In this document: piece by piece, positions 5,200 through 48,053 of the stretch | How positions within the stretch are numbered: position 1 is the stretch's first letter | How the letters are laid out: each line of letters begins with the position of its first letter | Assembly: GCA_041665925.1 (NCBI GenBank) | Contig: JBAYHW010000003.1 | Location: 7,737 to 71,736 of the forward strand | Direction of reading: 5' to 3' | DNA: 64,000 bases | Source: Minisyncoccota bacterium | Lineage (GTDB): Bacteria > Patescibacteriota > Minisyncoccia > Phycocordibacterales > UBA9973 | Translations under genes and position numbers: made by a program | The notes under the pieces: generated by a model | The model's input: only the letters and a program-made list of their open reading frames with translations | Told to the model about the DNA's origin: nothing | Database searches by the model: none

Positions 5200-5202
5200 A
5201 TA

Positions 5203-5550: not shown

Positions 5551-5779
5551 TTTATTTCTTCCAATCCTTAATTTGAATCCCGCCGGGGATCTTTTTGACG
5601 ACCACTTTTTGCTTCTCCTTCCAGTTGAGCTTTCGGACAAGATCCATGGGTAAAGTGACAGCGAGCGATGCTCCGCCGACCTTGGTTAACTTCCTTATAT
5701 TGCTACTAGCTGATTTAGTTATTCCCATAAATACTTATTCGTTTACGCATTCGATTACGTACATCATACTCCAGCTAGG

Positions 5780-9840: not shown

Positions 9841-10062
9841 CTACTCAATAATTATTAACTTACTAGGGTGTTTATGACCGTTTACAATTCGGATTTTGGA
9901 AATTGGCACACGAAAATACTCGGCTATTATCTCTAGCACGCGAACATTTGCCATATTGCGCTCGGCTTTTTCTTTTACAGAAATTTCAAAATGATCGGGA
10001 GTCTTCTTTTTAAAATTTTCTTTCTTGGCACTGGCTGTGACTTTAACATGGATGTATTGCAC
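9841..10062 (-). CDS. DUF167/YggU family protein
   Basis: 73 aa with the family-typical IsVkEkAeRnmANvrVlEiIAeyFrVPiSkIrIVnGhkhpsKlI pattern. Confidence 0.65.
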   Translation of the reverse strand: MQYIHVKVTASAKKENFKKKTPDHFEISVKEKAERNMANVRVLEIIAEYFRVPISKIRIVNGHKHPSKLIIIE

Positions 10063-10150
10063 AAAATAATTCTACCATTTTCTTGATAAACTGAGTAGAA
10101 ATAAATAATGCGCAAAAGATCGCAAATAACTTAAATGTTATTTATTGTTT

Positions 10151-10357
10151 TTAATTCGCTGGTGCTTCGTTGTTTCCTGCAGGTAACTTAAGATTTACAT
10201 CTATGCTCCCGTTTTGAGGAGTATCATTGCGCATTGCTGGCAAACCAAACCTGAAAAACAAAAAGATAACTAGGATTGCTAGTATCACCCCTACAATTAT
10301 ACCCACCCCTGAACTATCTCCACTAGTACCACCTGGATTATTTATTACAGTTGACAT
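10151..10357 (-). CDS. small membrane protein
   Basis: 68 aa, single TM. Confidence 0.4.
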   Translation of the reverse strand: MSTVINNPGGTSGDSSGVGIIVGVILAILVIFLFFRFGLPAMRNDTPQNGSIDVNLKLPAGNNEAPAN

Positions 10358-10443
10358 AAATTTTTATAATTAGTTGTTAATATAGACCTAACTATTATGC
10401 CGTATGTGAAGAGATTTGATTTCAATTATTTTTATATCTCAAC

Positions 10444-11094
10444 TTACGGATAATTCCTGCCATCCCCGGTAATAGGGATAACGTCTCCTAAATATTTCGG
10501 CTTACTGTGAAATATTAAATTCAGCACAGCTTTCTCGTTGGCAAATACTTCTCGAACATAATTTTTAAAACGAATGTGTCCTTCGTCAGCTGACAGGCCA
10601 GAAGCCTCCAGTCCGAGCGCCCGAGCAATGAATACAGAACGTGGTAAATGAAAAGACTGAGTAGATATAATCACAGACTCAACTTGAAAAATATCTCGGG
10701 CACGGTACATAGTGCTATAAGTATCAAAACCCGCATGGTCAAGAAATATGTCGGCGTCGGGAATGCCTTTTTCTAAAAGATAATTGCGAACAGGATCCAC
10801 TTCGTTGTGAGCCACGGTGCTGTTGTCTCCGGAGACTAATATTTTTTTAACTTTTTTTGCCCGATATAGTTCTATGGCGGTATTGACTCTATCTTTAAAA
10901 ATAGACGAGATGGCCCCATTCTCTAATATTGCAGCTCCGGGAATAAGCGCCACCTGTGCCTCTCCTACGTCATCTATGTTTTTATAAATATGTGACTTTG
11001 ACCCGAAGTAAATAACCAAATTAGAAACAACAATAAAGAGGAGAAGAATTTCTGCTCCGTAGATAAGAAAAGTTATAAAACGTTTGAAATTCAT
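10444..11094 (-). CDS. DUF218/SanA-like (YdcF/ElyC family) membrane-anchored protein
   Basis: ILVSGDN...HNEVDPVRNYL...FLDHAGFDTYSTMYRAR motifs. Confidence 0.75.
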   Translation of the reverse strand: MNFKRFITFLIYGAEILLLFIVVSNLVIYFGSKSHIYKNIDDVGEAQVALIPGAAILENGAISSIFKDRVNTAIELYRAKKVKKILVSGDNSTVAHNEVDPVRNYLLEKGIPDADIFLDHAGFDTYSTMYRARDIFQVESVIISTQSFHLPRSVFIARALGLEASGLSADEGHIRFKNYVREVFANEKAVLNLIFHSKPKYLGDVIPITGDGRNYP

Positions 11095-11097
11095 TGT

Positions 11098-11250
11098 TTA
11101 CTGTAATGGATTTCTACCTTGAATGATGCGCACCAAAAACAAAACAACAGCTATCACCAAAAGCAGGTGAATAAAACTTCCCAAAACATGAAAGCCGAGG
11201 AACCCCAGAGCCCAAAGAATCACTAATAGAATTGCAATATTTGTAAGCAT
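11098..11250 (-). CDS. lmo0937-family mini membrane protein (50 aa). It is below the ORF-track size cutoff.
   Basis: Translation MLTNIAILLVILWALGFLGFHVLGSFIHLLLVIAVVLFLVRIIQGRNPLQ matches the conserved family pattern. Confidence 0.55.
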   Translation of the reverse strand: MLTNIAILLVILWALGFLGFHVLGSFIHLLLVIAVVLFLVRIIQGRNPLQ

Positions 11251-11274
11251 ATAATTTATGGTTAAGATAATAAT

Positions 11275-11631
11275 CTAATTTTCTTGATTTTCTAATTTAA
11301 CAGCCGCTTCAGGGGTAGAAACTGTCTTCCCCATCAAAAACATTTTGATAATCCCAAAAGCGATCAGCCAGTACACAAGCATAGCTAATAGCGTCGTCCA
11401 TTCAAAAATAGACCCTTCGACCCGAGACATTTTAAAGACACTCAAAAAAGGAGCTGCGAAAATATAACTAAGCTTATAAATAAAACTACTGAACCCAGCA
11501 TAAGGATTTGCTGCTAATAATTTCAAAACAAAACGAAATGCCAATAATACTTCTAAAACACCTAAAACATACCAAACTATTTGTGTCCCGCGATAAAGTG
11601 GCTTCGTGGTCGGAGAATGAAATGAATCCAT
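11275..11631 (-). CDS. YggT-like small membrane protein
   Basis: Membrane helices with an LLAFRFVLKLL motif. Confidence 0.4.
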   Translation of the reverse strand: MDSFHSPTTKPLYRGTQIVWYVLGVLEVLLAFRFVLKLLAANPYAGFSSFIYKLSYIFAAPFLSVFKMSRVEGSIFEWTTLLAMLVYWLIAFGIIKMFLMGKTVSTPEAAVKLENQEN

Positions 11632-11714
11632 ATATTTTTCTATTAATTATTATTGTTAATTACGACTAATAAAGACCTACATATAATGCCGTAGAGATAT
11701 AGAATTTATTTCAA

Positions 11715-12653
11715 TTATTTATTAGCGGAACACTTGACCTGAAGCTCAGCGAGGTCAGCCGCGGTCGCCACTTGATTGTCGCCTTGATTGAGCTCGTACA
11801 TTATCGCTTTCGGATCCTTCACATGCTCCAGGGCGAGAGCGTGCCCTAATTCATGAGCTAAAACACGCACAAGCTTTTCCCTACTACTAAATTCATAAAT
11901 ATCTATTTCCCTCTTTATCTCCTCCTCGATATATACTCCTTCTTCGAAAGACTCTCCGCGAGAAATATTTATGTCATTGTATTTTTCTACCGTGAGATTT
12001 AAAATTTTAGCCAATCTGTTAATCGCCACGACTATAGAGTTCACCTCAGAAGCTAATTCATTTACCTGCCTCTGTTTCTCTTCTAGTGTCCTACCGAGTG
12101 TCTGGAGAGCCTGGTGCTCTTTTTCTAATTTATTAAATTCATCTTCGGGGGCTCCGCCTTTTTTATTCCAAAAATTCACTTCTCGTTCGTAAGCACTCGT
12201 GCGAGCGTTGAAGGCGCTAATCTCTGCCTCGAGAGAACTTTTTTCTTTTTCATATTGAATCTTTAATGGTTCAAATTTTGCCCGCAGACTGTCGTACGAT
12301 GCCTTGTTGTCTTTCACTACAATGCCTAAGTCGTCGAGCTTGCTCGTAGCCTGCTGACGATAATCATATATAAGATTTATGGTTAAAACATTTGGTAATG
12401 TATTGGTAGGCTGATATTCGAAAAGATTCTTGCCATAAGGAGTCTCCCAGACTTGCTCTGCTTCTGACAATGCTTCCAGAAAATATTTCTCTGAAATACC
12501 GAAATTAATATTAAACTTGCCAATGTTATACGGTATGGGCTCGGTGCATGGTGCTGGCTGTAAAAATGGAATGTAATCCCGAAATGCATACACCACTGCT
12601 CCGAGAAAAATGAAAGTGGTGAAAAATTTTAAGATACTTGATATTAGCTTCAT
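11715..12653 (-). CDS. membrane-anchored matrixin-like zinc metalloprotease (metzincin)
   Basis: HELGHALALEH zinc motif plus an AIMY Met-turn. N-terminal TM and a coiled-coil middle region. Confidence 0.75.
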   Translation of the reverse strand: MKLISSILKFFTTFIFLGAVVYAFRDYIPFLQPAPCTEPIPYNIGKFNINFGISEKYFLEALSEAEQVWETPYGKNLFEYQPTNTLPNVLTINLIYDYRQQATSKLDDLGIVVKDNKASYDSLRAKFEPLKIQYEKEKSSLEAEISAFNARTSAYEREVNFWNKKGGAPEDEFNKLEKEHQALQTLGRTLEEKQRQVNELASEVNSIVVAINRLAKILNLTVEKYNDINISRGESFEEGVYIEEEIKREIDIYEFSSREKLVRVLAHELGHALALEHVKDPKAIMYELNQGDNQVATAADLAELQVKCSANK

Positions 12654-12658
12654 TTTAT

Positions 12659-12688
12659 TTTACTTGCTAGGTCTTGCCTAGCAAGTTT
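12659..12688. repeat. REP-like palindromic element, copy A: ttacttgctaggtcttgcctagcaagtttc
   Basis: Identical 30-mer at 13829-13858 and a partial inverted copy at 13384-13395. Confidence 0.7.
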
Positions 12689-13352
12689 CTATATCATTAT
12701 AAGATAACCATTCGAAAATTTCTCTTTTAAAAACTTCGGGTGATGAAAAATATCTTGGATAGTCCTTATAATTTATAATACCATTTTGCTTTCGCACCTT
12801 GCCTATGTAATCCGGATAACTCGAAAAATAATATTTTTGCAAAAAATCTATGGCTTTTGTTTTATTTTTTATACCATTTTCCTTCCAGTCCCCTTGAATC
12901 AATTTGACCGGGTTCAAATGTATATAGGAAAAAATGTATTTCAAATATCTATCATCTCCTAAATGCTCTGATTTAAATTTCCCCTCAAAAAGTCCGCCTG
13001 TTCTTTTATATTTATTATTAAAATACATTACATATGCTGTACTTACTTTCTGCATAAATTTACTGATACCATTTTCCTCTTTTTCAGTTACTAGGATATG
13101 AAAATGGTTAGGCATCAGTACAAAAGACCCGATACTTATCAAGGGCTTGCCTCTTTCAAAAAGATACGGGTCCTTTTCTTTCGTATTTTCCACTAAGAAA
13201 TTCCGAAAATTATTAGTCCCATTACAGGTATACAAAAGAGTGATAAAACGGTAATAATCTTCTTTTTCGAGAAAAATTTTTTGTTTACTATTCCCGCGAT
13301 TATACAAATGATAGTATTCTCCTACAGCAAATGATGTAGTGCGTACTGACAT
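12678..13352 (-). CDS. IS200-like Y1 (HUH) transposase, RAYT-like (REP-associated tyrosine transposase)
   Basis: YHLYNRG N-terminal motif, HUH motif MPNHFHILV, and catalytic Tyr in YIHLNPVK. At 224 aa it is longer than a classic IS200 TnpA, as RAYTs are. Confidence 0.8.
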   Translation of the reverse strand: MSVRTTSFAVGEYYHLYNRGNSKQKIFLEKEDYYRFITLLYTCNGTNNFRNFLVENTKEKDPYLFERGKPLISIGSFVLMPNHFHILVTEKEENGISKFMQKVSTAYVMYFNNKYKRTGGLFEGKFKSEHLGDDRYLKYIFSYIHLNPVKLIQGDWKENGIKNKTKAIDFLQKYYFSSYPDYIGKVRKQNGIINYKDYPRYFSSPEVFKREIFEWLSYNDIETC

Positions 13353-13383
13353 GCTTTAATTATACTCTATCCCGAATTTGCGA

Positions 13384-13395
13384 GGCAAGACCTAG
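13384..13395. repeat. partial REP-like half-site (ggcaagacctag) in inverted orientation
   Basis: Matches the core of the 30-bp element. Confidence 0.4.
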
Positions 13396-13416
13396 AAAAT
13401 CAGAAATCTTATCAAC

Positions 13417-13821
13417 TTAGTCAATCAAATTTTTAACCTTTAAATCATCAAAAACAAACTGACTTACAAGAGAGGTCAGTTCCTTCTTCGAGTAGTGAAA
13501 CCAGTCAATTGCACCTATTTCATTACTTGGCTTAAGTGTTCCTTGGTATTTTGCCTGATAGCATTTTAATTTAACTATCGTCCCTTCAGGCTTGCCATGC
13601 GCTTGAGCCTCGAAGGTCCCATAATACAATATAGTAACTGGATCTAAATCGACATTCAATTCCTCTTTGATTTCTCGTACAAGGGCTTGTTCATCACTTT
13701 CACCTTCTTCGCGTTTTCCGCCAGCAAAATACCAAGTATCCTTATTATGACTACGAGTTACCAAAACTTTTCGGTCTTGTATTTCAATAAGGGCTGATTT
13801 GTAGATGTATGTTTTTCCCAT
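13417..13821 (-). CDS. NUDIX hydrolase
   Basis: Nudix box GGKREEGESDEQALVREIKEELNV. Confidence 0.8.
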   Translation of the reverse strand: MGKTYIYKSALIEIQDRKVLVTRSHNKDTWYFAGGKREEGESDEQALVREIKEELNVDLDPVTILYYGTFEAQAHGKPEGTIVKLKCYQAKYQGTLKPSNEIGAIDWFHYSKKELTSLVSQFVFDDLKVKNLID

Positions 13822-15190: not shown

Positions 15191-16945
15191 ATGGAAAAAT
15201 TTTATAGTCGGATACGCAATTTTAAATTGCCTAAAAAAGACGAACTTAATTCAGTTTTTCATTCCTTTTCAAAAAATGAATGGATTGTTTTTATTCTGCT
15301 TGTAGTTATATTTTTCATCAGCACGATAACTATAGTAGAAAGTATAAATAAGTCCTTGATGGTGAAAGTTCCATTCCGTGGTGGATCTATCTCTGAAGGA
15401 ATAATTGGAGCACCTCGTTTTATCAATCCAGTTTTAGCCAATTCTCCTGCTGATTTGGACATGGCGGCACTCGTATACTCAGGACTAATGAGAAAAAATG
15501 GAGATGGGACTCTTTCCCCAGACTTGGCAGAAAAATACGAGATGTCCAAAGATGGGTTGACTTACACATTCACGCTGAAAACAGGAATCGTGTTTCATGA
15601 TGGATTACCAATTACAGCGGATGACGTCATCTTTACTATTAACAAAGCAAAGGATTCAATTTTAAAAAGTCCAAGAAAAATAGACTGGGACGGAGTCACG
15701 GTTAAAAAAATAGACGACAGAACAATAGAATTTAACTTAAAACAACATATTCCAGCATTTCTAGAAAATGCAACTTTAGGAATAATGCCAGCGGCAATTT
15801 GGAGCGATTCGGCAATAGAATTAAATCCGGCTAACACATTCCCAATAGGATCTGGACCCTACATGATAAAAGATGTTGCGAAAGAATCTTCTGGAGTCAT
15901 AAATTCTTACGCCATGGAGGCCTTCGATAAATTTATTTTAGGTGAACCATACATTAATACAATGAACGTGCATTTTTATACTAACGAAAATGAACTCGTC
16001 AACGCCCTTGAAAATAAAGAAGTGGATCAAATAAGTTCTATCACCCCGCTCAATGCCGATATATTGAAAGAAAGAAATTTCCAAATTGAATCTTCGGTGT
16101 TGCCTAGAGTGTTCGGATTATTTTTTAATCAAAATCACAACCAACTTTTTACCAATAAAGTAATAACCAAAGCCATAGATCAGGCGATAGATAAAGATAA
16201 AATAGTAAGAGAAATGCTCTTCGGTTATGGTATCGCTATAGATGACCCAATTCCACCTAATCTGACCGCCTATCAAACACTTAGCCCTAAAAACACTCTC
16301 TCCCGCGAAGAGATATTAAAAAATGTAGAAAATAGCTTAGCAAAAGATGGTTGGTCGAAAGGCACAGATGGATTTTTGCAAAAAACTACAACTGATAAAA
16401 AGAAGAAGAAAACAACAGTTCCTCTAGAATTTTCTATCTCTACTGGTAATGCTCCGGAGCTTGCTAAAACAGCCGAACTAATAAAACAAGACTTAACGGC
16501 TATAGGAATGAAGGTAGATGTCAAAACCTTTGAAGTCGGTAATTTGAACGAAGGCGTCATTCGTCCTCGAGATTATGATGCTCTGTTGTTCGGACAAATT
16601 ATAAATCACGAATCAGACCTGTTTGCGTTCTGGCATTCATCTCAACGCAAGGACCCTGGACTCAATGTGGCGATGTATACCAATGCCAAGGTAGATAAAA
16701 TTCTAAAAGAAGCTTTCTCTATGATTGATGAACAGGCTCGAATAAAACAATATGCGATATTTGAAAGTGAAATTAAAAAAGATATGCCAGCTGTATTTTT
16801 ATACAGTCCAAATTTCATATACGCTCTCTCTGGCAAACTCCAGGGATTGTCTATCGATCATATAACATCCCCTGCGGATCGTTTTTCAAATGTATATTCT
16901 TGGTATACTCAAACAGAAAATGTTTGGAAAATATTCTCTAAATAA
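15191..16945 (+). CDS. ABC transporter substrate-binding protein, family 5 (peptide/nickel type), membrane-anchored
   Basis: SBP_bac_5 signature region DGLTYTFTLKTGIVFHDGLPITADDVIFTI with an N-terminal TM anchor. Confidence 0.8.
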   Translation: MEKFYSRIRNFKLPKKDELNSVFHSFSKNEWIVFILLVVIFFISTITIVESINKSLMVKVPFRGGSISEGIIGAPRFINPVLANSPADLDMAALVYSGLMRKNGDGTLSPDLAEKYEMSKDGLTYTFTLKTGIVFHDGLPITADDVIFTINKAKDSILKSPRKIDWDGVTVKKIDDRTIEFNLKQHIPAFLENATLGIMPAAIWSDSAIELNPANTFPIGSGPYMIKDVAKESSGVINSYAMEAFDKFILGEPYINTMNVHFYTNENELVNALENKEVDQISSITPLNADILKERNFQIESSVLPRVFGLFFNQNHNQLFTNKVITKAIDQAIDKDKIVREMLFGYGIAIDDPIPPNLTAYQTLSPKNTLSREEILKNVENSLAKDGWSKGTDGFLQKTTTDKKKKKTTVPLEFSISTGNAPELAKTAELIKQDLTAIGMKVDVKTFEVGNLNEGVIRPRDYDALLFGQIINHESDLFAFWHSSQRKDPGLNVAMYTNAKVDKILKEAFSMIDEQARIKQYAIFESEIKKDMPAVFLYSPNFIYALSGKLQGLSIDHITSPADRFSNVYSWYTQTENVWKIFSK

Positions 16946-16975
16946 CCCCGACGTAAAGTCGGGGTCCCGACCTAA
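16926..16975 (+). terminator. tandem hairpins ccccgacgtaaagtcgggg and cccgacctaaaagcgtcggg
   Basis: The same cgacgtaaagtcggg core recurs at 21243-21290. Confidence 0.5.
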
Positions 16976-17020
16976 AAGCGTCGGGATTATTAATAAAAAA
17001 CATAAAGTAAAAAAATCATA

Positions 17021-18971: not shown

Positions 18972-20120
18972 ATGAAGCACAACAGACACATAATATATCT
19001 TGCTGGTTTCTTGTTTTCTATCCCTATTGCTTTAACTTCGTACATAAACTCAAGCTTCCTGGAGGGATATTTGAACAAATACTACGTTAGTGTTTTGTAC
19101 GTTGTTGCTTCCCTCATCAGCATCGTCGGCATGCTCCAAATGCCGAAGATTCTAGAACGCTTGGGCAACCGCCGAGCGACCTTTTGGTTTAGTTTTGTAT
19201 TCTTTTTATCCTTACTCACTCTAGCTCTAGTAAATAATGCAACCCTTGTTGTCTTGGCTTTCGTCCTGTATTGGATATCGGCAAGTTTTATCTTTGCGAC
19301 ACTTGATATTTTCGTAGAGGATTTCTCTAAAAGCTCCACGATCGGTAAACTGCGAGGATTGTACCTTTCTATAATCAACATAGCTTGGGTGCTGTCGCAA
19401 ATGATCTCCGGAAGTATCATAGCCAGAAGCTCGTTCTCTGGAATTTATTTACTCTCGGCTTTATTCACTATCTTGTTTGGAATTATATTTGTATTTTTCT
19501 TGCACAATTTCGTAGATCCAAAATATAAGAAAGTCTCTATCGTAAAGACAATAAAACACTTCATCCAAAATAAAAATATTTCAAAAATATATTTTATAGA
19601 TTTAACTATAAAATTCTTCTATGCCTGGATGGTAATCTACACCCCAATATATCTAAACGAGTATCTCGGCTTTTCTTGGGACAAGATTGGAATTATGTTT
19701 ACCATTATGTTGATACCTTTTGTGGTCTTATCTTTTCCACTAGGTCAGCTATCTGATAAAATCGGAGAGAAGAAGATAATGATTATTGGATTTTTAATAA
19801 TGAGCTTGTCTACCCTATCTATCCCATTCATAACTGAACAAAAAGTCTGGCTCTGGGCCCTCGTGCTTCTGTGCACTCGAATAGGCGCCGCCTCTGCCGA
19901 AGCCGTAACCGAAAGTTATTTCTTTAAAGTCGTCAGTGAAGAAAATGCCGACATGATCAGCTTCTTCCGTAATGCTTCTCCTGTAGCATATATTGTCGGC
20001 CCACTTCTAGCTATCCCGGTTTTATTTTTTATTCCTTCGTTCAAATATATATTTTTTGTTCTGGGTGCAATCTTACTGATCGCCTTCTTTATATCTCTAC
20101 GACTTAAGGATGTGAAGTAA
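18972..20120 (+). CDS. MFS transporter
   Basis: About 12 TM helices. Confidence 0.7.
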   Translation: MKHNRHIIYLAGFLFSIPIALTSYINSSFLEGYLNKYYVSVLYVVASLISIVGMLQMPKILERLGNRRATFWFSFVFFLSLLTLALVNNATLVVLAFVLYWISASFIFATLDIFVEDFSKSSTIGKLRGLYLSIINIAWVLSQMISGSIIARSSFSGIYLLSALFTILFGIIFVFFLHNFVDPKYKKVSIVKTIKHFIQNKNISKIYFIDLTIKFFYAWMVIYTPIYLNEYLGFSWDKIGIMFTIMLIPFVVLSFPLGQLSDKIGEKKIMIIGFLIMSLSTLSIPFITEQKVWLWALVLLCTRIGAASAEAVTESYFFKVVSEENADMISFFRNASPVAYIVGPLLAIPVLFFIPSFKYIFFVLGAILLIAFFISLRLKDVK

Positions 20121-20531
20121 GTGGTTTTTATAAATTTTTTCCTTATAGGGCTTAAGACGGATAACTTTTACCCTTAGACCTCCCTTTTTTAAATCTTTTT
20201 TCAGATTCAAAACATACGCTTTTTGGTCATACCCGAGAGCTATAATATCTGGTCTGATTTTCAAAATATGAGGAATGTGATTTTTAACCCCAGACAGCAC
20301 AACTCCGTCGACTAACTTAGACTTTTTAACTAAACCTAATCGGGCTTTTTCGTTATGGTGGGGATATTTACCTTTTATTTTATAAACATTTTTATCTCTA
20401 GCAATAGACACAACTAAAAAGCTATTTTTCACTAAATTTCTAGCCTGCTTGAATAAATTAAGATGTCCTGGATGCAGACCATCAAAGGTTCCAAAAAGCA
20501 TTATTTTTTTATCCCCAGTTTTTTTTGACAT
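20097..20531 (-). CDS. cytidylyltransferase-like nucleotidyltransferase (HxGH superfamily)
   Basis: MLFGTFDGLHPGHLNLF motif. The start was trimmed to MSKKTG; the ORF-track start at 20558 is likely too long. Confidence 0.65.
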   Translation of the reverse strand: MSKKTGDKKIMLFGTFDGLHPGHLNLFKQARNLVKNSFLVVSIARDKNVYKIKGKYPHHNEKARLGLVKKSKLVDGVVLSGVKNHIPHILKIRPDIIALGYDQKAYVLNLKKDLKKGGLRVKVIRLKPYKEKIYKNHLLHILKS

Positions 20532-20587
20532 AGCACAAGACCAGTATATACTATACAAAGTTCTTTTTAAAATTTAAAGAAATGATT

Positions 20588-20760
20588 TGGGGAAACTGGT
20601 TCAATTCCAGTACAGTGCCGCTACGGTAAGCCTCGTCAAACGAGGACAAGTCCGACTACCATTCATTTCGCGTATCCCGAGCAGGAGTAAAGCCTTCTTT
20701 TTTGAAGGACAACGAATTCTGCTACGGCAGGATTTTTTTATTTCTACAAGCAAGGAGCAT
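20588..20760 (+). ncRNA. candidate cobalamin (B12) riboswitch with a terminator-type expression platform
   Basis: GGGGAAACUGGUUCAAUUCCAGUACAGUGCCGCUACGGUAAG resembles the GGGAA..GGUGAAAAUCC..CCCGCCACUGU core. The downstream AAGUCCGACUACC resembles the conserved 3-prime AAGUCAGGAUACC element. A hairpin ctgctacggcag plus a U-run follows. The downstream genes are DUF4430 proteins. Confidence 0.5.
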
Positions 20761-20821
20761 AAACAAATTTATTTGTTTAATGTCCGAGTCACCGTAGAAC
20801 TATAGTATTACTATATTTTAT

Positions 20822-21241
20822 ATGTCAAAAAAAGCAAAAATAGCAATATCAACAACTCTAGGATTACTATCTGTATTTTTGTATTTATACGTTATCTCGC
20901 CAGTAAAAATAGCCCCAGCCACATCCACCACCCAACTTGTGCCCACGAAGGAAACGAACAAGAACTTGCCAAGTCCTACAGAGTTATCTTTTATTACCAG
21001 AGAACAAGATACTGTTTACGGTTTCATGGAAAAACTCAAGAAAGAAGGAAAAATAAACTTTGTAGATAAAACTTATTCCGGCATGGGGAAACTTATATTG
21101 TCTATCAATGGACAGAAAAGTAACGGCAATAAAACCTGGATATATTATGTAAACGGCAAGGAGGCCAATGTGGGAATTTCTAATTACCAGATTAAACCAG
21201 GAGATATAGTTTCCTGGAAATATGAATCAGTGCATTATTAA
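20822..21241 (+). CDS. DUF4430 domain protein (transcobalamin beta-domain-like, putative B12-binding), membrane-anchored
   Basis: N-terminal TM, then TWIYYVNGKEANVGISNYQIKPGDIVSWKY, typical of the DUF4430 C-terminus. Confidence 0.65.
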   Translation: MSKKAKIAISTTLGLLSVFLYLYVISPVKIAPATSTTQLVPTKETNKNLPSPTELSFITREQDTVYGFMEKLKKEGKINFVDKTYSGMGKLILSINGQKSNGNKTWIYYVNGKEANVGISNYQIKPGDIVSWKYESVHY

Positions 21242-21242
21242 T

Positions 21243-21290
21243 CCCGACGTAAAGTCGGGACCCCGACATAAATTTATTTGGCGTCGGGGT
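21243..21290 (+). terminator. hairpins cccgacgtaaagtcggg and ccccgacataaatttatttggcgtcgggg
   Basis: Shares a 15-nt core with the terminator at 16926. Confidence 0.5.
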
Positions 21291-21305
21291 TAATATTTAA
21301 AAAAG

Positions 21306-23048
21306 ATGGAAAAATTTTTGCAATTTATATTTATTTTAATGTTAGTAATCGGTGCCGGGAATATGGCGTCTGCAGAAGATACTCCGCTCACCATACACCT
21401 TACTCTCAGAGCTGGAGAAGTTTTCTTCTCAGAAGATGTCCCGCTGTATCCTGACAGCACTGTTTTATCTATTTTAAAAGAAGCCGATACTGCAAGTGAC
21501 ATCTTTACGGTTTCTAATATTCAAGAATTTTCTTTTGGTTCATATTTAAAATGTATCAACATAAAAGATATAGGGAATAAGTGTGATGACTGGCAATACA
21601 CCGTAAACGGAAGTTACCCAAGCACCAGCATTGATCAAACTACCCTATCAGGCTCCGGAAGTGTGTACTTTTATTTTAGTGCGAAAAACAGAATTTCTTT
21701 AAGTAGTGACGTTATTCAAACATCTGACACCGTCGTGGTAACTGTAGAAAAATATGATTATGAAGATGGATTATGGTCGGCAGAAGATACTGCCACAATA
21801 GGAGTAACTCAGCCAGACCCTTTGGGGTCTTTTAATCCCCCAACAGAAATAATGACCGGCACAGTGGATGGAAGCGGTCAAGTCAGCTTTTCTTCTATCC
21901 CTGTTGGAATTTATGACGTCGGCATAAGAGACGAATACGGGTATTATTTCCCAACAAAGCCGTTGACGGTTAATCCTGTAGTGCAACACACGGGAGGATC
22001 ATCCTCTTCTCTCTCGATACCTCTACAACAACCCGCAGGCAAAGTCCTAGGTGCGGAAACAAAAATCGGTTTTGACATGACAAAAGCCGTAGAATTCTTA
22101 ATATCTCAGCAGACTGAAAATGGAGCTTTCGGCGAAGATATGTATACGGATTGGACAACGGTAGCTCTAGCTTCTACTGAAGTACAAATACAAAAAATAC
22201 AGCCAATCTTAAAACTGGTAAAGTATTTATCACTTAACAAACCAGCTGGGGCCATGCTGACAGATTATGAACGCCACGCTATGGCCATTATGTCGCTCGG
22301 ATTAAATCCACATAATGCAAATGGAGAAAATTACGTTGAGAAAATTGTGAGTAGTTTCGATGGTAAGCAGTTCGGAGACATTAATGAAGACAATGATGAC
22401 ATCTTCGCTTTAGTGGTCTTAAATAATGCTGGTTATGGAGAGAAAGAAAAAATTATTGAAGAAAGTTTGAAATTTGTACTAGAAAGACAGAAGGAAAATG
22501 GATCTTGGGATGAGAGTATAGATATGACCGGTGCCGGAATACAAGCTTTGTCTAATTTTAAAGAAAACGAAAAGGTAAAAAGCGTGCTAATAAAAGCGAA
22601 GACATTTCTCGAAAAAACACAAGGAGAAAACGGTAGCTGGAATGATGATGCGTCGTCGACAGCTTGGGCCATAGGAGGAATAACGGCACTAGGAGAAAAA
22701 ATAGAAGATTGGAAAAAGAAAGACAGATCTCCTCTCGATTATCTCGCCACAATTCAAGATGCGGATGGAGGGGTGAAAGACGAAAATATTAAAAACAAAA
22801 TCTGGAAAACAGCTTATGTTGTCTCTGCGCTGTCGGGTAAAACTTGGAACCAGGCCATGGAAAAATTCGAAAAAATAGAAACGCAAAAAAATATTGAAAA
22901 ACCAAAAAAAATACTTAAACAAAAAGTAGCCGAGACGGCTCCTGCCACCCCAGCCACTTTAACTCCCCCTTTACCATCAGAATCACCAATAGAAAATTCC
23001 GAGGAAGGTTGGTTCGGTAAGTTCTTCCAGTATATTTTTAATTTTTAA
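21306..23048 (+). CDS. secreted protein with an N-terminal DUF4430-like domain and an alpha/alpha-toroid (prenyltransferase/squalene-cyclase-like) domain, plus a Lys/Pro-rich tail
   Basis: Signal peptide. WQYTVNGSYPS...GSVYFYF DUF4430-like motif. AVEFLISQQTENGAFGED..WTTVALA and QKENGSWDES repeats typical of an alpha6/alpha6 barrel. Confidence 0.6.
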   Translation: MEKFLQFIFILMLVIGAGNMASAEDTPLTIHLTLRAGEVFFSEDVPLYPDSTVLSILKEADTASDIFTVSNIQEFSFGSYLKCINIKDIGNKCDDWQYTVNGSYPSTSIDQTTLSGSGSVYFYFSAKNRISLSSDVIQTSDTVVVTVEKYDYEDGLWSAEDTATIGVTQPDPLGSFNPPTEIMTGTVDGSGQVSFSSIPVGIYDVGIRDEYGYYFPTKPLTVNPVVQHTGGSSSSLSIPLQQPAGKVLGAETKIGFDMTKAVEFLISQQTENGAFGEDMYTDWTTVALASTEVQIQKIQPILKLVKYLSLNKPAGAMLTDYERHAMAIMSLGLNPHNANGENYVEKIVSSFDGKQFGDINEDNDDIFALVVLNNAGYGEKEKIIEESLKFVLERQKENGSWDESIDMTGAGIQALSNFKENEKVKSVLIKAKTFLEKTQGENGSWNDDASSTAWAIGGITALGEKIEDWKKKDRSPLDYLATIQDADGGVKDENIKNKIWKTAYVVSALSGKTWNQAMEKFEKIETQKNIEKPKKILKQKVAETAPATPATLTPPLPSESPIENSEEGWFGKFFQYIFNF

Positions 23049-23431
23049 AACAAAGATAAAACCCAAGGAGTCGGAATCGCCAGAAACATAAGCAACGCAC
23101 CAATGAGACCTAGATTTTTGTAGAAATTAACTCTCTCCCCCATTCTCGCCATCTGATCAGTAACTTCCCAATATCGGTGCATTTTTACTAATGTTCCAAG
23201 TAAAAACAGCACAAGTAAAAGCACAGCATATTCTACATAGACTCCTAGAAGAATCCCCAGACCACCTAAAAGCATCATAGCTCCTGTCAGCAAAACTGCT
23301 TCTTTCGCTTTTGGTACCCCCTTTGACTGCGCATAACCCGTAAGCATTCCAACATTTTTGAAGTGATTATAAGCATTTTGTAAAAAATAACCCCCGAATA
23401 TAATCCTCCCCAACATAAATAAATAAATCAT
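23045..23431 (-). CDS. DoxX family membrane protein
   Basis: 128 aa, 4 TM, DoxX-like pattern. Confidence 0.7.
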   Translation of the reverse strand: MIYLFMLGRIIFGGYFLQNAYNHFKNVGMLTGYAQSKGVPKAKEAVLLTGAMMLLGGLGILLGVYVEYAVLLLVLFLLGTLVKMHRYWEVTDQMARMGERVNFYKNLGLIGALLMFLAIPTPWVLSLF

Positions 23432-26702: not shown

Positions 26703-27257
26703 TTAAACTTCTTTTTTATAAAAATGCGCTACGGCAAGTAAAGTAAGTAGCGCAAAGAACGCAGTCAGGGCCATCATGGGAATAGAAATATAGCCACCAA
26801 ATTCCGATACTAAACGCTGATAGCAAGAGACGCCGGAAGCATCACACGGCAAATTAGAACTTTCTCCAAAATAATAAAAGAAATTCTGATACAGAGAAAT
26901 TAGAAACCCAAAACACAAAAGGGGCAAGACATAACGAATAACTTTCCTGTCTTTATCCCATAAAGCAACACCGAACATCAAAAAGGTCGGGAACATAAAC
27001 ACTCTCTGCCACCAACAAAGAGCGCATGCTAAAAATCCAATAATTTCAGAATACACTAAAGGAAAAACCGAAGAAAACAGAGAAATCAAAAAAGCTAGAA
27101 TTAAAAAATGCTTATTTATAAAATCCAAATAAACATTTCCTCCCTTCCCGTTTGACCTAAAGAAAAGTAAAAATATAGCAACAACAGAAAGAACTTGAAG
27201 AAGAATAACTCCTAGCCCGAGAAACACATTGAGATAATGTATAGCTTCAGTGCTCAT
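26703..27257 (-). CDS. DsbB-family disulfide bond formation protein
   Basis: 4-5 TM with ACALCWWQR (CxxC...QR) and a second Cys pair CDASGVSC in a loop. Confidence 0.65.
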   Translation of the reverse strand: MSTEAIHYLNVFLGLGVILLQVLSVVAIFLLFFRSNGKGGNVYLDFINKHFLILAFLISLFSSVFPLVYSEIIGFLACALCWWQRVFMFPTFLMFGVALWDKDRKVIRYVLPLLCFGFLISLYQNFFYYFGESSNLPCDASGVSCYQRLVSEFGGYISIPMMALTAFFALLTLLAVAHFYKKEV

Positions 27258-27258
27258 T

Positions 27259-27648
27259 TTATTCTGGTAAAACGCAAGCAGTTTTCTCGGCTAGTTTTTG
27301 AAGTGGAATTTCTCCGTTCATTCGAGACCCATCAGCAAATTCCCAAGTAGGATAGCCTTCGATTTTTTTATCTGTACAAACTGGTAGCTGTCCTTGCCCA
27401 TTAGCCGTAGAACATTCTACATAAGGAATCAATTTCTGAGAAGAGCCGAAAAGCTTTTTCTGTGACTGACAGTGAGGGCACCAGTAAGCTCCATAAAACA
27501 CAGCACCTTTGTCTTTCAAGCAAGTAGCAAATTCGTCATATTTCCCAGGGCCAGGAGGAGTAGCGTCCGACTGAAGTACAACTGTAGCAATCGTACCCAA
27601 AATTAAAAGACCAACAACCGATATGAAAATTTTTACGTTTTTATCCAT
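27259..27648 (-). CDS. membrane-anchored thioredoxin-fold thiol-disulfide oxidoreductase (DsbA/BdbA-like)
   Basis: WCPHC active site and an N-terminal TM. It is adjacent to the DsbB-like gene. Confidence 0.7.
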   Translation of the reverse strand: MDKNVKIFISVVGLLILGTIATVVLQSDATPPGPGKYDEFATCLKDKGAVFYGAYWCPHCQSQKKLFGSSQKLIPYVECSTANGQGQLPVCTDKKIEGYPTWEFADGSRMNGEIPLQKLAEKTACVLPE

Positions 27649-32497: not shown

Positions 32498-33133
32498 ATG
32501 AAAAAACTTTTAAATAAGAAACTATTTATTTCAAGTTTCTTGATCCTCTTCCTAGTAATGCAGTTCTACGCTTTGACAGAGTACGCTTTTGCTGTCACTG
32601 ATAACGTCGTCGTTACACTTGACGTGGATTCCGGAATTACAATTTCGGATGGTGCAGCGGTTACCATGGCTCCGAACATTAGCATCACTACAGATAGCTC
32701 CATAGGTAGCTCTGCATGGACTGTCATTACAAATGGGGCAAGCGGATATTCACTTGCAGTCAAGGCTTCCGCATCTCCAGCGCTCGTCTCCGGCAGCAAT
32801 TCTTTTGCTGATTACACTGAGGCTGTGGCTGGTACTCCGGAAGCTTGGTCTGTTGCTTCCGGTGATAAAGAGTTTGGCTATTCTGCATACGGTACCGACA
32901 CTTCAACGGCAGAATATGGAGCAGCCGCTACGTGCGGAGCTGCTGGCGTACCAGATGTCGGTCAGAATTATGAAGGGTTTGCAACTTCAGACAACATAAT
33001 CGCCACAAGAGCTACTGTTACTCCTGTCGCTGGTATAGCCACGACTATCTGCTTTGCTGCTGAACAAAATGGAGTTTTTGCTCCAGTGGGAACCTACACG
33101 GCAACAATAACGGGCACGGCTGTCACTTTATAA
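32498..33133 (+). CDS. secreted WxL-domain-like cell-surface protein (csc-like cluster member)
   Basis: Signal peptide. SAWTVITNGASGYSLAVKASASPAL and a C-terminal YTATITGTAVTL. Paralog of 34131..34907. Confidence 0.5.
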   Translation: MKKLLNKKLFISSFLILFLVMQFYALTEYAFAVTDNVVVTLDVDSGITISDGAAVTMAPNISITTDSSIGSSAWTVITNGASGYSLAVKASASPALVSGSNSFADYTEAVAGTPEAWSVASGDKEFGYSAYGTDTSTAEYGAAATCGAAGVPDVGQNYEGFATSDNIIATRATVTPVAGIATTICFAAEQNGVFAPVGTYTATITGTAVTL

Positions 33134-33148
33134 TGAATTAGTCATCCT

Positions 33149-34126
33149 TTGATCTTCCTTATGAAAAAAACCTTATACAGCTCCATCTTTGGAATATTAG
33201 CTATAAGCTTTTTTTTCTTACCTGACCACTCATACGCTTATACAAAGATTAAGGTTGACGTTACTCCCCAAAATGACTTTGTGGTAGAACCAGGTAAAAC
33301 TGAAGTTTTTCTAAATCCTGGAGAAAGTATGGTAAAAAATATTTCAGTTACGAACCGAGTCAATAAGACTGTGAAGTTTAAACTGAGCACAGAAGATTTC
33401 GTCGGTACAGATGATGCAAATCAACCAGTCATACTTTTAGGAGACACGCACAGCCCGTATTCACTCAAGGATTTTATTACACCTGAAATTACAGAATTCA
33501 GTTTGGAGTTCGGGGAAAAAATCACTATCCCCGTCTCTGTTTCCGTACCTCTGAACGCTGAACCACGCGGATTTTACGGAGCCTTGATTGTCTCCAATGA
33601 TCCAGACAAATTAACAAATGAAGTCATTTCTGAAGCCCAGGGTAAAACTCGCATTGTTTCTCGAATCGGTTCTTTGTTTCTTCTAAAAATAAACGGTGAA
33701 GGTATTGAAAGTGGAGATATTGAAAACTTTAAAGTCATAGGTCCATCAAAATTATTTTATAGTGAAAGACCAGATGGATTCGAGATTGCCTACAAAAACA
33801 CCGGGAACGTTCACTTAGTTCCCTACGGTACGATTACTATCAAAAATATATTCGGGAAAGCAGTCGCTGTATTGCCTGTCGATGCTTATTTTGCACTCCC
33901 TGACTCTGTTCGTTATCGAGAGGTAATGTGGGAAGATGGCTTTAACCTTGGACGTTATACCGCTCACCTTTCTCTTTATAAAGGATACAATGAAGAATAC
34001 GTTGACGCTAAAGTTTCTTTTTGGATAATTCCGTGGAAAATATTAATACCAGTATTTGTCGGAATATTACTTCTCGTCACACTGGTTTATTATATTTTGA
34101 CACGTTTTGAATTAAAGAGAAAATAA
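33149..34126 (+). CDS. cell-surface protein with an N-terminal signal and a C-terminal TM anchor (DUF916/CscA-like architecture)
   Basis: Signal peptide, a beta-rich ectodomain, and a C-terminal hydrophobic helix plus KRK stop-transfer. Confidence 0.5.
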   Translation: MIFLMKKTLYSSIFGILAISFFFLPDHSYAYTKIKVDVTPQNDFVVEPGKTEVFLNPGESMVKNISVTNRVNKTVKFKLSTEDFVGTDDANQPVILLGDTHSPYSLKDFITPEITEFSLEFGEKITIPVSVSVPLNAEPRGFYGALIVSNDPDKLTNEVISEAQGKTRIVSRIGSLFLLKINGEGIESGDIENFKVIGPSKLFYSERPDGFEIAYKNTGNVHLVPYGTITIKNIFGKAVAVLPVDAYFALPDSVRYREVMWEDGFNLGRYTAHLSLYKGYNEEYVDAKVSFWIIPWKILIPVFVGILLLVTLVYYILTRFELKRK

Positions 34127-34130
34127 TATA

Positions 34131-34907: not shown

Positions 34908-34909
34908 AA

Positions 34910-36232: not shown

Positions 36233-36377
36233 CCATTTATACCAAAACTGTGGATAACTAGTGGATACTAGGTGTATTAACTAGTATAATATAGGAGATA
36301 TAAAGAATATCGCTTATCCGAGATTTTATTTTCAACTATCTCGTTTATCCAATAAATCCTTTTATATCTTGATATAA

Positions 36378-39655: not shown

Positions 39656-39674
39656 TTAAATTATTAAATAAAGA

Positions 39675-40787: not shown

Positions 40788-40790
40788 CAA

Positions 40791-48043: not shown

Positions 48044-48053
48044 ATAAGTAATT

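Follow-up and report, generated by a model that had tools for sequence, protein, structure and literature searches.

The window analyzed here, the whole 64,000-nucleotide stretch of DNA from a Candidatus Paceibacterota (Patescibacteria) bacterium, contains two adjacent genes preceded by a structured leader (Table 1). The first gene encodes a small membrane-anchored protein with a DUF4430 domain, and the second a large secreted protein in which a DUF4430-like domain is combined with a helical toroid. The leader consists of a compact aptamer of the cobalamin riboswitch clan, a conserved box and an intrinsic terminator, and is preceded by a putative sigma-70-like promoter. Promoter and terminator were both picked up independently by scan, and a block, AAGTATATACTAA, the equivalent of the promoter, is kept upstream of the aptamer in relatives. 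The hairpins between the two genes were seen in this window only, with their arms recurring at 16946-16985; in relatives, the two genes abut.

Table 1. The module and its leader: positions in the window and basis of each assignment
Feature	Position	Strand	Basis
Putative sigma-70-like promoter, TTGACA, 16 nt, TATACT	20525..20552	+	11/12 consensus matches
Cobalamin riboswitch aptamer, compact, class-II-like	20576..20673	+	RF01689 match, custom covariance model, covariation
Invariant box UCCCGAGCAGGA, putative P13 hairpin UCC[CGAGCA]GGA	20675..20686	+	Conservation, pairing
Spacer hairpin CCUUC-U6-GAAGG	20693..20708	+	MFE folds of the window copy and most relatives
Intrinsic terminator GAAUUCUGC-UACG-GCAGGAUUU into U7 tract	20714..20739	+	Scan, 9 pairs
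Gene 1, 139-aa type-II membrane-anchored DUF4430 protein (transcobalamin-like beta-grasp)	20822..21241	+	PF14478, model, Foldseek
Two GC-rich REP-like hairpins between the genes	21243..21290	+	-26.4 kcal/mol
Gene 2, 580-aa secreted protein	21306..23048	+	Pfam matches, structure model

The leader RNA and its expression platform

The leader is a riboswitch of the cobalamin clan followed by a terminator, as an earlier note on this DNA had proposed; cobalamin binding by the RNA is predicted. The aptamer comprises P1/P2, the T-loop hairpin, P5 with L5 GCC, P6 with a simple variable hairpin, and the B12 box AAGUCCGACUACC. The single variable hairpin, which shows compensatory changes, sits between CGGUAA and ACAAGUCCG; the P6 extension (P7-P11) is absent and the aptamer spans about 98 nt, the features of class II. 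The best Rfam model for the window copy is the 81-position RF01689 (AdoCbl-II), which matches the leader over its full length (20579-20669, model positions 1-81 of 81, 33.8 bits, E = 2.3e-6), about 3 bits short of the gathering score of 36.5 bits. The window aptamer falls under the gathering score of every model of Rfam clan CL00101, and a search of the whole window at Rfam gathering thresholds recovers two tRNAs only and no riboswitch call, a result that, taken alone, would have led to the riboswitch being wrongly dismissed. The earlier note had specified an Infernal search with RF00174, the lack of a match counting against a riboswitch. There is no RF00174 call for the window copy, yet this outcome is misleading because each column of the element has its counterpart in leaders from relatives that pass RF00174 or RF01482. 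At the gathering score, the leaders of 11 of the 14 genome relatives are recognized (RF00174 in 10, RF01482 in L013), and additional passes are found among homologous copies (RF01482 in L098 and RF01689 in L064).

Against a custom covariance model, R1, built from 15 copies of the element, the window copy reaches 94.4 bits (E = 1.3e-23) over the full extent given in Table 1; the element itself was correctly spotted in the earlier note, but its 5' end had been placed at 20588, whereas the true end lies about 10 nt farther upstream. Under a 27-pair structure, 95.9% of the cells are paired across 72 distinct copies, and 18 of the 27 pairs have changed on both sides; in the controls, slid structures were 22-47% paired and 0 of 500 shuffles scored as high. 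Exactly one riboswitch copy is present per locus in all 83 loci that reach far enough upstream (of 95 sources), always on the gene strand and ahead of a DUF4430 gene.

Downstream of the aptamer, the terminator and an antiterminator are mutually exclusive. Of 71 distinct leaders, 70 have an unaltered copy of a 10-nt box, CCCGAGCAGG, whose 3' side provides the 5' strand of the antiterminator. Pairing of the box with the 5' half of the terminator was seen in 67 of 67 leaders (duplex of about -9 to -18 kcal/mol), including those of the sister clade, in which the stem sequence differs. The terminator scan places the hairpin of the window at 20714-20735, followed by T7, and an equivalent hairpin and U-run occur in 67 of the 70 distinct box-bearing leaders, where the count required a hairpin running into a U-tract. 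The antiterminator helix encloses the spacer hairpin, which separates the box from the terminator. The loop of the box may engage L5 in a kissing contact: four G-C pairs, with one A bulged out, are possible between GCCG of L5 and CG(A)GC of the box. Both are invariant in 70 of the 71 leaders and, because neither side varies, the L5-L13 pairing gives no covariation. A GGC within the terminator loops was considered as a partner of L5 and rejected, as it is not conserved.

The two proteins

The description of the gene 1 product as a membrane-anchored DUF4430 protein is borne out by a PF14478 match at 49.3 bits (cutoff 23.8 bits) and by a structure model (pLDDT 79) with an N-terminal transmembrane helix at residues 3-25, along with a hydrophobic segment, and a beta-grasp domain at residues 54-136. 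In the model, its ectodomain adopts the transcobalamin-type beta-grasp fold, and it may bind B12. The proposed relationship to the beta-domains of transcobalamin and intrinsic factor likewise holds: the top 10 Foldseek matches are the beta-domains of transcobalamin, intrinsic factor and haptocorrin together with the bacterial DUF4430 protein 3u7z, at a probability of 0.96-1.00, which drops to about 0.05 thereafter, and the TM-score against the isolated transcobalamin beta-domain 5no0 is 0.60. Gene 1 adjoins gene 2 in 14 of 14 genome loci.

Gene 2 encodes, as had been suggested, a large secreted protein in which a DUF4430-like domain and a toroid are joined. The signal peptide (residues 1-23, ending in ASA, before ED) is followed by the DUF4430-like domain (about 29-125), an Ig-like sandwich (128-223), a disordered linker (230-252), the alpha/alpha toroid (256-520), a Pro/Thr/Lys-rich tail (528-568) and a short conserved C-terminal helix (569-577). 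The structure model is confident (pLDDT 85.7) and comprises the beta-grasp-like domain, the Ig-like sandwich, the disordered linker and the helical toroid; the Ig-like sandwich had not figured in the earlier description. In Pfam, the protein matches DUF4430 (PF14478) at 26.9 bits over residues 50-125 and SQHop_cyclase_C at 34.3 bits. Among the relatives of gene 2, PF14478 is matched by 39 of 63 at E <= 0.01, and a DUF4430 domain is fused in all family members. The DUF4430 domains of gene 1 and gene 2 share no more than a remote relationship (hhalign E = 0.007).

The affinities of the toroid are broader. The gene 2 protein has no match to PF01122 at E <= 0.01; 26 of its 63 relatives do match (best E = 3e-8, 25.9-33.5 bits, with a cutoff of 25 bits), in the C-terminal third of the toroid only. 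Single-sequence and profile searches against PDB sequences gave no significant transcobalamin match (TCN1 at E = 0.29), squalene-hopene cyclase being dominant. Class II terpene cyclases and the TED domains of alpha2-macroglobulin match the toroid no less closely than transcobalamin does, and by a slight margin better; the toroid has the alpha/alpha architecture with QW-type repeats that is a feature of these cyclases. Structure comparison places intrinsic factor and transcobalamin within the top 11 of 48,164 chains. A [D/N/Y]NDD motif (NDD at 363-365), the first position of which varies, is conserved in the gene 2 family, the alignment of which has no invariant His or Cys as a possible cobalt ligand. 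The two proteins had been thought to reconstitute, between them, both halves of the eukaryotic B12 carrier. Both folds are indeed present, but the division of labor between the genes does not stand: gene 2 alone has both, in reversed order. Since this single chain already contains both halves, gene 1 supplies an extra beta-domain rather than a missing half. B12 binding is predicted for the gene 2 protein, too.

Gene context, mechanism and alternative readings

Among the approximately 70 ORFs of the window, there is no ECF, BtuCDF, B12-dependent enzyme, adenosyltransferase or candidate corrinoid transporter, in agreement with the previous observation that no ECF or BtuCDF transporter is adjacent, and in none of the 83 loci is a transporter gene found downstream of the riboswitch. 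In the window clade, the neighborhood (SBP5, RNase J, MFS, cytidylyltransferase, module, DoxX) is merely syntenic and, as such, uninformative; the MFS transporter at 18972-20120 was set aside as a functional partner, given the synteny of the entire region and the position of its gene, upstream of the riboswitch. The sister clade is more telling. In 8 distinct loci of this clade, the module comes after an ECF-S-like gene, which stands upstream of the riboswitch, and a gene for class II ribonucleotide reductase (RNR, with PF21995), and in three loci (L065, L085 and L091), a PduO-type adenosyltransferase (PF01923) is encoded between the RNR and the riboswitch. The operon of S-like protein, RNR, adenosyltransferase and ArsR recurs without the module, with the PduO-type enzyme swapping with a CobA-type adenosyltransferase. 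In L098, the corresponding slot is occupied by a cobalamin riboswitch whose target is a single DUF4430-like protein, anchored at the surface and without a toroid. The S-like protein, of the PF07155/PF20221 type, has more than 2,400 relatives; its profile finds no match among PDB sequences. The operon linkage to a B12-dependent RNR in related genomes makes this ECF-S-component-like protein the best candidate for the importer. It is possible, if rather doubtful, that Patescibacteria employ an undescribed route in which a lone ECF-S-like protein imports B12 and is fed by riboswitch-controlled, tethered, transcobalamin-like binders. Transporters of the S-component type are generally held not to use extracytoplasmic substrate-capture proteins; if such a route exists, they would work with capture proteins of this kind.

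[quoted passage not shown] The surface B12-scavenging function proposed in the earlier note is in line with the cobalamin riboswitch, the carrier beta-domain fold and the linkage to B12 genes in the sister clade, and this reading of the two-gene module is well supported computationally. Under the mechanism that we envisage, transcription from the near-consensus promoter would enter the compact aptamer; when cobalamin is bound inside the cell, L5 (GCCG) would kiss the loop of UCC[CGAGCA]GGA and thereby steady the weak P13 hairpin, so that the downstream terminator could form and transcription would end before gene 1. Without cobalamin, the box would capture the 5' half of the terminator to form an antiterminator, allowing transcription of the two genes. 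On a flexible stalk, the gene 1 protein would then hold a transcobalamin-beta-like domain clear of the membrane, and the secreted gene 2 protein would contribute a transcobalamin-alpha-like toroid and an Ig-like spacer along with a second beta-like domain; the two proteins could jointly bind external B12 or related corrinoids and hand them over to a membrane transporter encoded elsewhere.

With respect to the RNA, the hairpin might act mainly on translation, or on translation as well as transcription, by blocking ribosome loading. In most relatives, 0-15 nt separate the end of the U-tract from the start codon and, in most of the 14 genome relatives (e.g., L002, L007 and L011), the ATG directly follows the U-run with no visible Shine-Dalgarno sequence. 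In the window, however, about 80 nt with hairpins of their own separate the U-tract from the ATG, so that occlusion of the start codon cannot work there, and the hairpin followed by 5-9 U has the canonical form of an intrinsic terminator, which 67 of 70 leaders retain; a translational switch is unlikely. The nature of the ligand is a separate matter. It seems quite unlikely that a different tetrapyrrole, heme or an incomplete corrinoid such as cobinamide, is captured, with the riboswitch merely reporting the cobalamin status: the cobalamin riboswitch that controls the module at 83 of 83 loci, the setting of the module among B12-dependent RNR and cobalamin adenosyltransferases, and the lack of any sign of genes for corrin-ring or lower-ligand assembly near the module all argue against it. 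The case for another ligand draws on the wording of Burroughs et al. (PMC1796856), who leave room for 'B12 or its precursors', on the lack in the gene 2 family of an invariant residue to serve as cobalt ligand, and on an operon of L. sakei in which separate transcobalamin beta-like and alpha-like proteins are encoded beside an ECF transporter and heme import has been proposed, a proposal that rests on docking and homology models.

Two further readings accept less of the scavenging scheme. The module could bind B12 and yet feed no importer, with the proteins hoarding or sequestering B12 at the surface as a reservoir, or serving in competition with, or attachment to, a host cell. The lack of a transporter gene under riboswitch control throughout the 83 loci fits such a role, as does the description, in the portions of the literature covered, of Bacteroides surface proteins as extracellular B12 reservoirs. 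Nevertheless, being repressed by B12 inside the cell marks a function as one of acquisition, and the sister-clade loci show physical linkage of the module to genes for a candidate transporter and for enzymes that use or activate B12, so that we regard hoarding as very unlikely. It is highly improbable, finally, that gene 2 specifies a terpene-cyclase-, prenyltransferase- or TED-type protein, either an extracellular enzyme or a component of the envelope, unrelated to B12 binding and repressed for some other reason, e.g., a B12-independent alternative function. The NDD motif aligns with the repeat position at about 446-454 of squalene-hopene cyclase, not with the catalytic DxDD; the protein is secreted, with a single toroid that is invariably fused to DUF4430, and is co-operonic with another DUF4430 protein; in L098, the same riboswitch slot is occupied by a DUF4430-like protein that has no toroid at all; and the high rank of intrinsic factor and transcobalamin in the structure comparison points in the same direction.

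The cells of Patescibacteria (CPR) are ultra-small, most of these bacteria are uncultured, and their biosynthetic capacity is minimal; the means by which they obtain cofactors from hosts or neighbors have been little described. A search of the literature on Patescibacteria or CPR together with cobalamin riboswitches or RNR found nothing relevant. The locus and its relatives provide a concrete, testable B12 parts list, namely, a sensor RNA and two surface binders with the folds of animal carriers, to which the sister genomes add a candidate importer, an activating adenosyltransferase and a B12-dependent class II ribonucleotide reductase. If the scavenging reading is correct, this would be the first regulatory evidence for the 2007 prediction that bacterial DUF4430-toroid proteins bind B12 and that the animal carriers were acquired from such proteins; in our literature search, we found no test of B12 scavenging by this kind of device since that prediction, and no ligand-binding report for bacterial DUF4430 members. 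The compact aptamer and the invariant platform box, in turn, appear to be well suited as a natural model system for the P13/kissing-loop/terminator mechanism. Current concepts are left unchanged by these findings, which place parts of established kinds in a new lineage.

Relation to known systems

The RNA shares with the models of Rfam clan CL00101 (RF01689, RF01482 and RF00174) a common core, which consists of the GGGAA junction, the GGUUNNAUUCC T-loop hairpin, GCCGCUACGGUAA and the B12 box, as well as an identical helix order and a short L5 with CCG; the Patescibacteria leaders fall between these three models. [quoted passage not shown]

On the protein side, the eukaryotic transcobalamin, intrinsic factor and haptocorrin (PF01122 and PF14478) are organized as toroid and then beta-domain, whereas the order in gene 2 is reversed (beta-like, Ig, toroid), and the Patescibacteria module possesses an extra Ig-like domain as well as an extra, separate beta-domain protein. 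The window protein further differs from these carriers in that it has no PF01122 match, is 12-19% identical in sequence, and has no conserved His as cobalt ligand. Functional analogy extends to the Bacteroides proteins BtuG, BtuH, the DUF4465 proteins and BtuJ, which, so far as the parts of these reports that were available describe them, also combine extracellular high-affinity corrinoid capture, hand-over to a transporter and B12-regulated loci. BtuG is a beta-propeller, and the Bacteroides binders, on the same partial sources, belong to different families that work with the outer-membrane BtuB in diderm cells, being analogues rather than relatives. BtuH was considered as a homologue and rejected: the papers on Bacteroides binders, in the portions covered, concern other families, e.g., DUF4465, and none turned up in the DUF4430 literature search.

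Similar in layout, judging by its description, is the lsa1836-1840 operon of L. sakei, which encodes an ECF-like transporter, the beta-like Lsa1839 and the alpha-like Lsa1840 (bioRxiv 10.1101/864751). Here, too, it is proposed that two extracellular proteins with the two transcobalamin folds bind a tetrapyrrole and supply it to an ECF-type importer; in this case, however, the proposed ligand is heme, the ECF A, T and S genes are in the operon, and no riboswitch has been reported. The idea of B12 scavenging by the DUF4430-toroid architecture is already known: Burroughs, Balaji, Iyer and Aravind predicted it in 2007 for SLBB (DUF4430) and toroid surface proteins from domain and operon context, which included a second paralogous protein in the operon (PMC1796856). 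The proteins they described resemble those of the Patescibacteria module in the secreted or anchored beta-grasp, a toroid that is N- or C-terminal, the Ig-like domains and the paralogous SLBB protein in the operon; they come from organisms without B12 synthesis, were described in Gram-positive bacteria and some archaea, and are usually encoded with CbiO/CbiQ (ECF) genes. The Patescibacteria module, in contrast, has no adjacent ECF A/T genes, the linked membrane protein in relatives being a lone S-component-like protein, and is controlled by a cobalamin riboswitch, a mode of regulation that is not mentioned in that study (PMC1796856). What the present analysis adds to that earlier prediction is, then, the Patescibacteria lineage, the link to a riboswitch and a candidate transporter.

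Identity and layout of the leader RNA

At gathering thresholds, an Rfam scan of the whole 64-kb window returned two tRNAs and no riboswitch. Searched on its own, the leader matched AdoCbl-II (RF01689) over the full length of the model (1-81/81; 20579-20669, 33.8 bits, E 2.3e-6), below the gathering score of 36.5 and with two further, weaker matches of the same clan hidden behind it; by Rfam alone, the window leader would be rated borderline. We therefore rely on comparison with 14 related loci from species-representative genomes and 80 from metagenomes. In all 14 genome loci, homologues of gene 1 (the small DUF4430 protein) and gene 2 (the large DUF4430/toroid protein) are adjacent, and exactly one copy of the aptamer core lies just upstream of the pair. 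RF00174 passes its threshold in 10 of these loci, RF01482 does so in the related locus L013, and additional copies pass the RF01482 or RF01689 thresholds. The window leader aligns column for column with the leaders of relatives that pass, the longer RF00174 matches of which reflect only an extension 5' into the conserved promoter.

The RF01689 consensus structure was projected onto the 15-copy alignment, with slid 3' partners and 500 shuffles as controls: 90.8% of cells were paired, compared with 21-50% after sliding, both sides changed in 13 of 27 pairs, and in four of five measures, none of the 500 shuffles reached the observed values. The covariance model built from this alignment and searched against 95 sources found exactly one match per source in 83, always on the gene strand and upstream of the small gene (window copy: 20576-20673, 94.4 bits, E 1.3e-23); the other 12 sources are all contigs that stop no more than about 440 nt from where the toroid match starts and hence lack the leader region. 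In the alignment of the 72 distinct copies, pairing reaches 95.9% of cells, both sides change in 18 of 27 pairs (218 cells), and 0/500 shuffles are as high, although these counts lean towards the structure because the alignment was fitted to the covariance model. The single variable hairpin that closes P6 and the length of about 98 nt indicate a class II architecture without the peripheral extension. Taken together, the comparative and covariation evidence identifies the leader RNA as a genuine, new member of the cobalamin riboswitch clan, the window copy of which current Rfam thresholds narrowly miss. The reading of 20588-20760 as a cobalamin riboswitch with a terminator hairpin, put forward in the earlier note, is thus borne out by the full-length RF01689 match, conservation across 83 loci, covariation, and the terminator; RF00174, proposed there as the check, formally fails to exceed its threshold in the window, which is outweighed by its matches in the homologous leaders and by the covariation.

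Promoter, structured leader, gene 1, spacer and gene 2 follow one another on the + strand within 20525-23048. The window derives from a Candidatus Paceibacterota (Patescibacteria/CPR) metagenome-assembled genome, and the gene 2 product is 100% identical to an NCBI protein encoded on a 93-kb contig of such an assembly. The spacer carries palindromic GC-rich arms (CCCCGAC...GTCGGGG) that form two strong hairpins (21243-21290, -26.4 kcal/mol); the arms recur at 16946-16985, in the gap between SBP5 and RNase J, and both sites resemble a small intergenic repeat of the REP type. The two module genes abut in relatives, which lack this hairpin spacer. A mechanical 72-aa ORF (20587-20805, +) overlaps aptamer, box and terminator, and is almost certainly not a gene.

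Features of the module and transport-related genes of the window
Feature	Position	Strand	Remark
Family-5 solute-binding protein (SBP5)	15191-16945		transport-related
MFS transporter	18972-20120		transport-related
FtsEX			transport-related, within 64 kb
Cytidylyltransferase-like gene	20097-20558	-	divergent flank
Sigma-70-like near-consensus promoter	20525-20552	+	TTGACA-16-TATACT; scan
L5	G20617-C-C-G20620	+
Putative P13 (box)	U20675-C-C[CGAGCA]G-G-A20686	+
Intrinsic terminator + U7	20714-20735	+	also found independently by scan
Gene 1	20822-21241	+	139 aa
Gene 1/gene 2 spacer	between 21241 and 21306		64 nt
Gene 2	21306-23048	+	580 aa
Beta-grasp-like domain	gene 2 residues ~29-125		model
Ig-like sandwich	gene 2 residues 128-223		model
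Disordered linker	gene 2 residues 230-252		model
Helical toroid	gene 2 residues 256-520		model
Pro/Thr/Lys-rich disordered tail	gene 2 residues 528-568		model
DoxX gene	23045-23431	-	convergent flank

A putative P13 and the expression platform

Every leader contains, 3' of P1, the box UCCCGAGCAGGA, the 10-mer CCCGAGCAGG of which occurs without mismatch in 70 of 71 distinct leaders. The box is followed by a small hairpin and then by a hairpin running into 5-9 U, a terminator that is present in 67 of the 70 box-carrying leaders. In each of these 67 leaders, the 5' half of the terminator can base-pair with the box; the resulting duplex (about -9 to -18 kcal/mol) generally equals or exceeds the terminator hairpin in stability. 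In the sister clade, that is, the loci in which the module adjoins a ribonucleotide reductase (RNR) operon, the terminator stem differs (ACUCCUC...GGAGU) and the box still pairs, via CCGAG:CUCGG, which helps to explain why the whole box is conserved.

This layout corresponds to that of the mutationally dissected Priestia megaterium metE switch, in which the bound corrinoid favours a kissing loop between L5 (CCG) and L13 (CGG); P13 is thereby stabilised and the terminator can form (PMC10327014). In the window, GCCG of L5 would be able to pair with CG(A)GC in the putative P13 loop, and by analogy with metE, we infer a kissing contact between L5 and the box loop; both candidate partners are invariant among the leaders and accordingly offer no covariation signal. 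Conceivably, the hairpin also acts on translation in those relatives, the majority, where the U-tract directly abuts the ATG, whereas in the window, some 80 nt separate the two.

The two DUF4430 proteins

Gene 1 matches PF14478 (DUF4430) at 49.3 bits (cutoff 23.8), and its AlphaFold model (72 sequences, mean pLDDT 79) consists of an N-terminal helix (3-25), a disordered stalk (27-49) and a beta-grasp domain (54-136). A basic start (MSKKAK) and only one hydrophobic segment imply an N-in topology in which the domain faces outwards. When the model is searched against the PDB with Foldseek, the ten best hits comprise beta-domains of transcobalamin, intrinsic factor and haptocorrin, among them the isolated transcobalamin domain 5no0 (TM-score 0.60), together with 3u7z, a Ruminococcus gnavus protein described in its PDB entry as putative metal-binding (probability 0.96-1.00), after which the probability drops to about 0.05. 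The membrane-anchored homologue of the transcobalamin/intrinsic-factor beta domain that the earlier note had seen in gene 1 is recovered here by profile, helix and fold alike.

In gene 2, the signal peptide (ending ASA|ED), the DUF4430 match (26.9 bits, residues 50-125) and the toroid fold (SQHop_cyclase_C, 34.3 bits; model from 63 sequences, pLDDT 85.7) agree with the secreted DUF4430-toroid protein originally described, and an Ig-like domain that had gone unmentioned lies between the two. The eukaryotic cobalamin-binding family PF01122 is matched by 26 of 63 gene 2 family members (best E-value 3e-8), in all cases on the C-terminal third of the toroid and mostly above the Pfam cutoff; gene 2 of the window gives no match to it. 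The modelled fold thus supports a transcobalamin-alpha-like toroid, as does the sequence in some family members, whereas the reversed domain order and the intervening Ig-like domain place gene 2 outside the eukaryotic carrier family. The DUF4430 domains of the two proteins are distant paralogues only (hhalign E 0.007, with a shared W-x-Y-x-V-N-G region).

Gene 2 ends, after its tail, in a short conserved aromatic helix (GWFGKFFQYIFNF; residues 528-580 correspond to 22887-23045), with W569 nearly invariant in the family; too short for a transmembrane helix, it may be an in-plane membrane or envelope anchor. The N-terminal domain contains an invariant cysteine pair (C83/C93), and DsbB-like and thioredoxin-like (WCPHC) genes (26703-27648 in the window) lie near the module in most loci, directly 3' of the toroid gene on the same strand in L013 and another relative, L089. 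Given the cysteine pair, these genes may be linked to disulfide formation in the secreted binder.

Genomic context and relation to known systems

No ECF, BtuCDF or B12-dependent enzyme genes turned up when some 70 ORFs of the window were scanned against Pfam, in accord with the adjacent-transporter gap noted earlier; transport-related genes are limited to FtsEX, the MFS transporter and SBP5. The neighbourhood (SBP5, RNase J, MFS, cytidylyltransferase, module, DoxX, and so on) is syntenic in most relatives and hence functionally uninformative. Elsewhere, a 681-aa protein (3154-5640) joins a GIY-YIG domain to a Schlafen-group-3-like helicase and, at its C-terminus, an S24 peptidase domain; with the MazG-like gene that follows, it may belong to a module for defence or stress. 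An IS200-like (Y1 transposase) gene (12678-13352) also occurs, at varying positions, in the related loci L011, L022, L027, L036, L041, L081, L084, L087 and L094, which suggests that the element is active or recently active in the lineage. At 32498-41849 and 46433-48617, large proteins that are secreted or anchored and have hardly any Pfam matches follow one another, one of them 965 aa long and Gly-rich in its C-terminal half (36758-39655); they are uncharacterised surface proteins of a kind typical of CPR genomes.

The sister clade (9 loci, 8 distinct), which also has the most divergent riboswitch copies, is more telling. Here, the genes immediately upstream of the module, on its strand, encode an ECF-S-component-like (S-like) membrane protein (PF07155, up to 29.8 bits; cutoff 26.7) and a class II RNR with ATP-cone, RNR_Alpha and the B12-dependent RNR insertion domain PF21995; in L065, L085 and L091, a PduO-type cobalamin adenosyltransferase (PF01923, 136-153 bits) intervenes between RNR and riboswitch, and in L065, L079 and L091, an ArsR regulator gene follows the module. 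In module-less genomes, S-like protein, RNR, adenosyltransferase and ArsR form a tight operon with overlapping stop and start codons. Widespread in Patescibacteria, the operon is represented, with or without the module, in L095-L100 (L095 at 10001-13788), L013 (1594-4494), L064, L065, L079, L085, L089 and L091. The adenosyltransferase slot is occupied by the PduO type in one set and by the CobA/BtuR type (PF02572) in another, a non-orthologous swap that argues for a functional unit. The S-like family (PF07155/PF20221 types; 2,496 relatives at E<=1e-5), several members of which, among the matches listed, bear the NCBI name "ECF transporter S component", gave no profile match to PDB sequences; its protein is the best importer candidate, possibly a lone corrinoid importer.

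In the related locus L098 (13345-14254), an RF01482 riboswitch (64.2 bits, cutoff 50) occupies the module's slot directly after a CobA-type adenosyltransferase gene and precedes a 247-aa protein with a signal peptide, acidic linker, DUF4430-like domain, Ser-rich linker and C-terminal TM anchor. The domain resembles the N-terminal one of gene 2 (CDNWLYKIDG motif; 22.3 bits, just under the cutoff), and the set is a toroid-less version of the module. Together with the sister-clade contexts, it points to a recurring unit, a cobalamin riboswitch and a surface DUF4430 protein beside B12-using and B12-activating genes. As a predicted function, the surface B12 scavenging proposed in the earlier note is supported by the riboswitch in 83 of 83 loci, the folds, and the RNR/adenosyltransferase contexts.

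In the incompletely covered literature, we found no experimental B12 binding by DUF4430 proteins of bacteria, nor any work on Patescibacteria that deals with B12 uptake or cobalamin riboswitches. A beta-like and alpha-like pair comparable to genes 1 and 2 lies beside an ECF transporter in Latilactobacillus sakei, where the modelled ligand is heme, in a proposed heme-uptake device (bioRxiv 10.1101/864751). The 2007 study of Burroughs, Balaji, Iyer and Aravind (PMC1796856), in which the transcobalamin-like clade was defined within the SLBB beta-grasp superfamily, describes signal peptides, alpha/alpha toroids fused on either side and Ig-like domains, operons with a second paralogous SLBB protein and CbiO/CbiQ genes, and occurrence in bacteria lacking B12 synthesis. 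Its authors predicted that these proteins scavenge B12 and proposed that the animal carriers originated in bacteria; riboswitches are not mentioned. The two proteins are new members of a family with a long-predicted role in B12 capture, to which we add the strict riboswitch link, the invariant P13-like box, the extension to Patescibacteria, and the tie to the S-like/B12-dependent RNR/adenosyltransferase operon with its candidate transporter: for the specialist, little surprise, but a useful, testable lead on cofactor acquisition in CPR bacteria.
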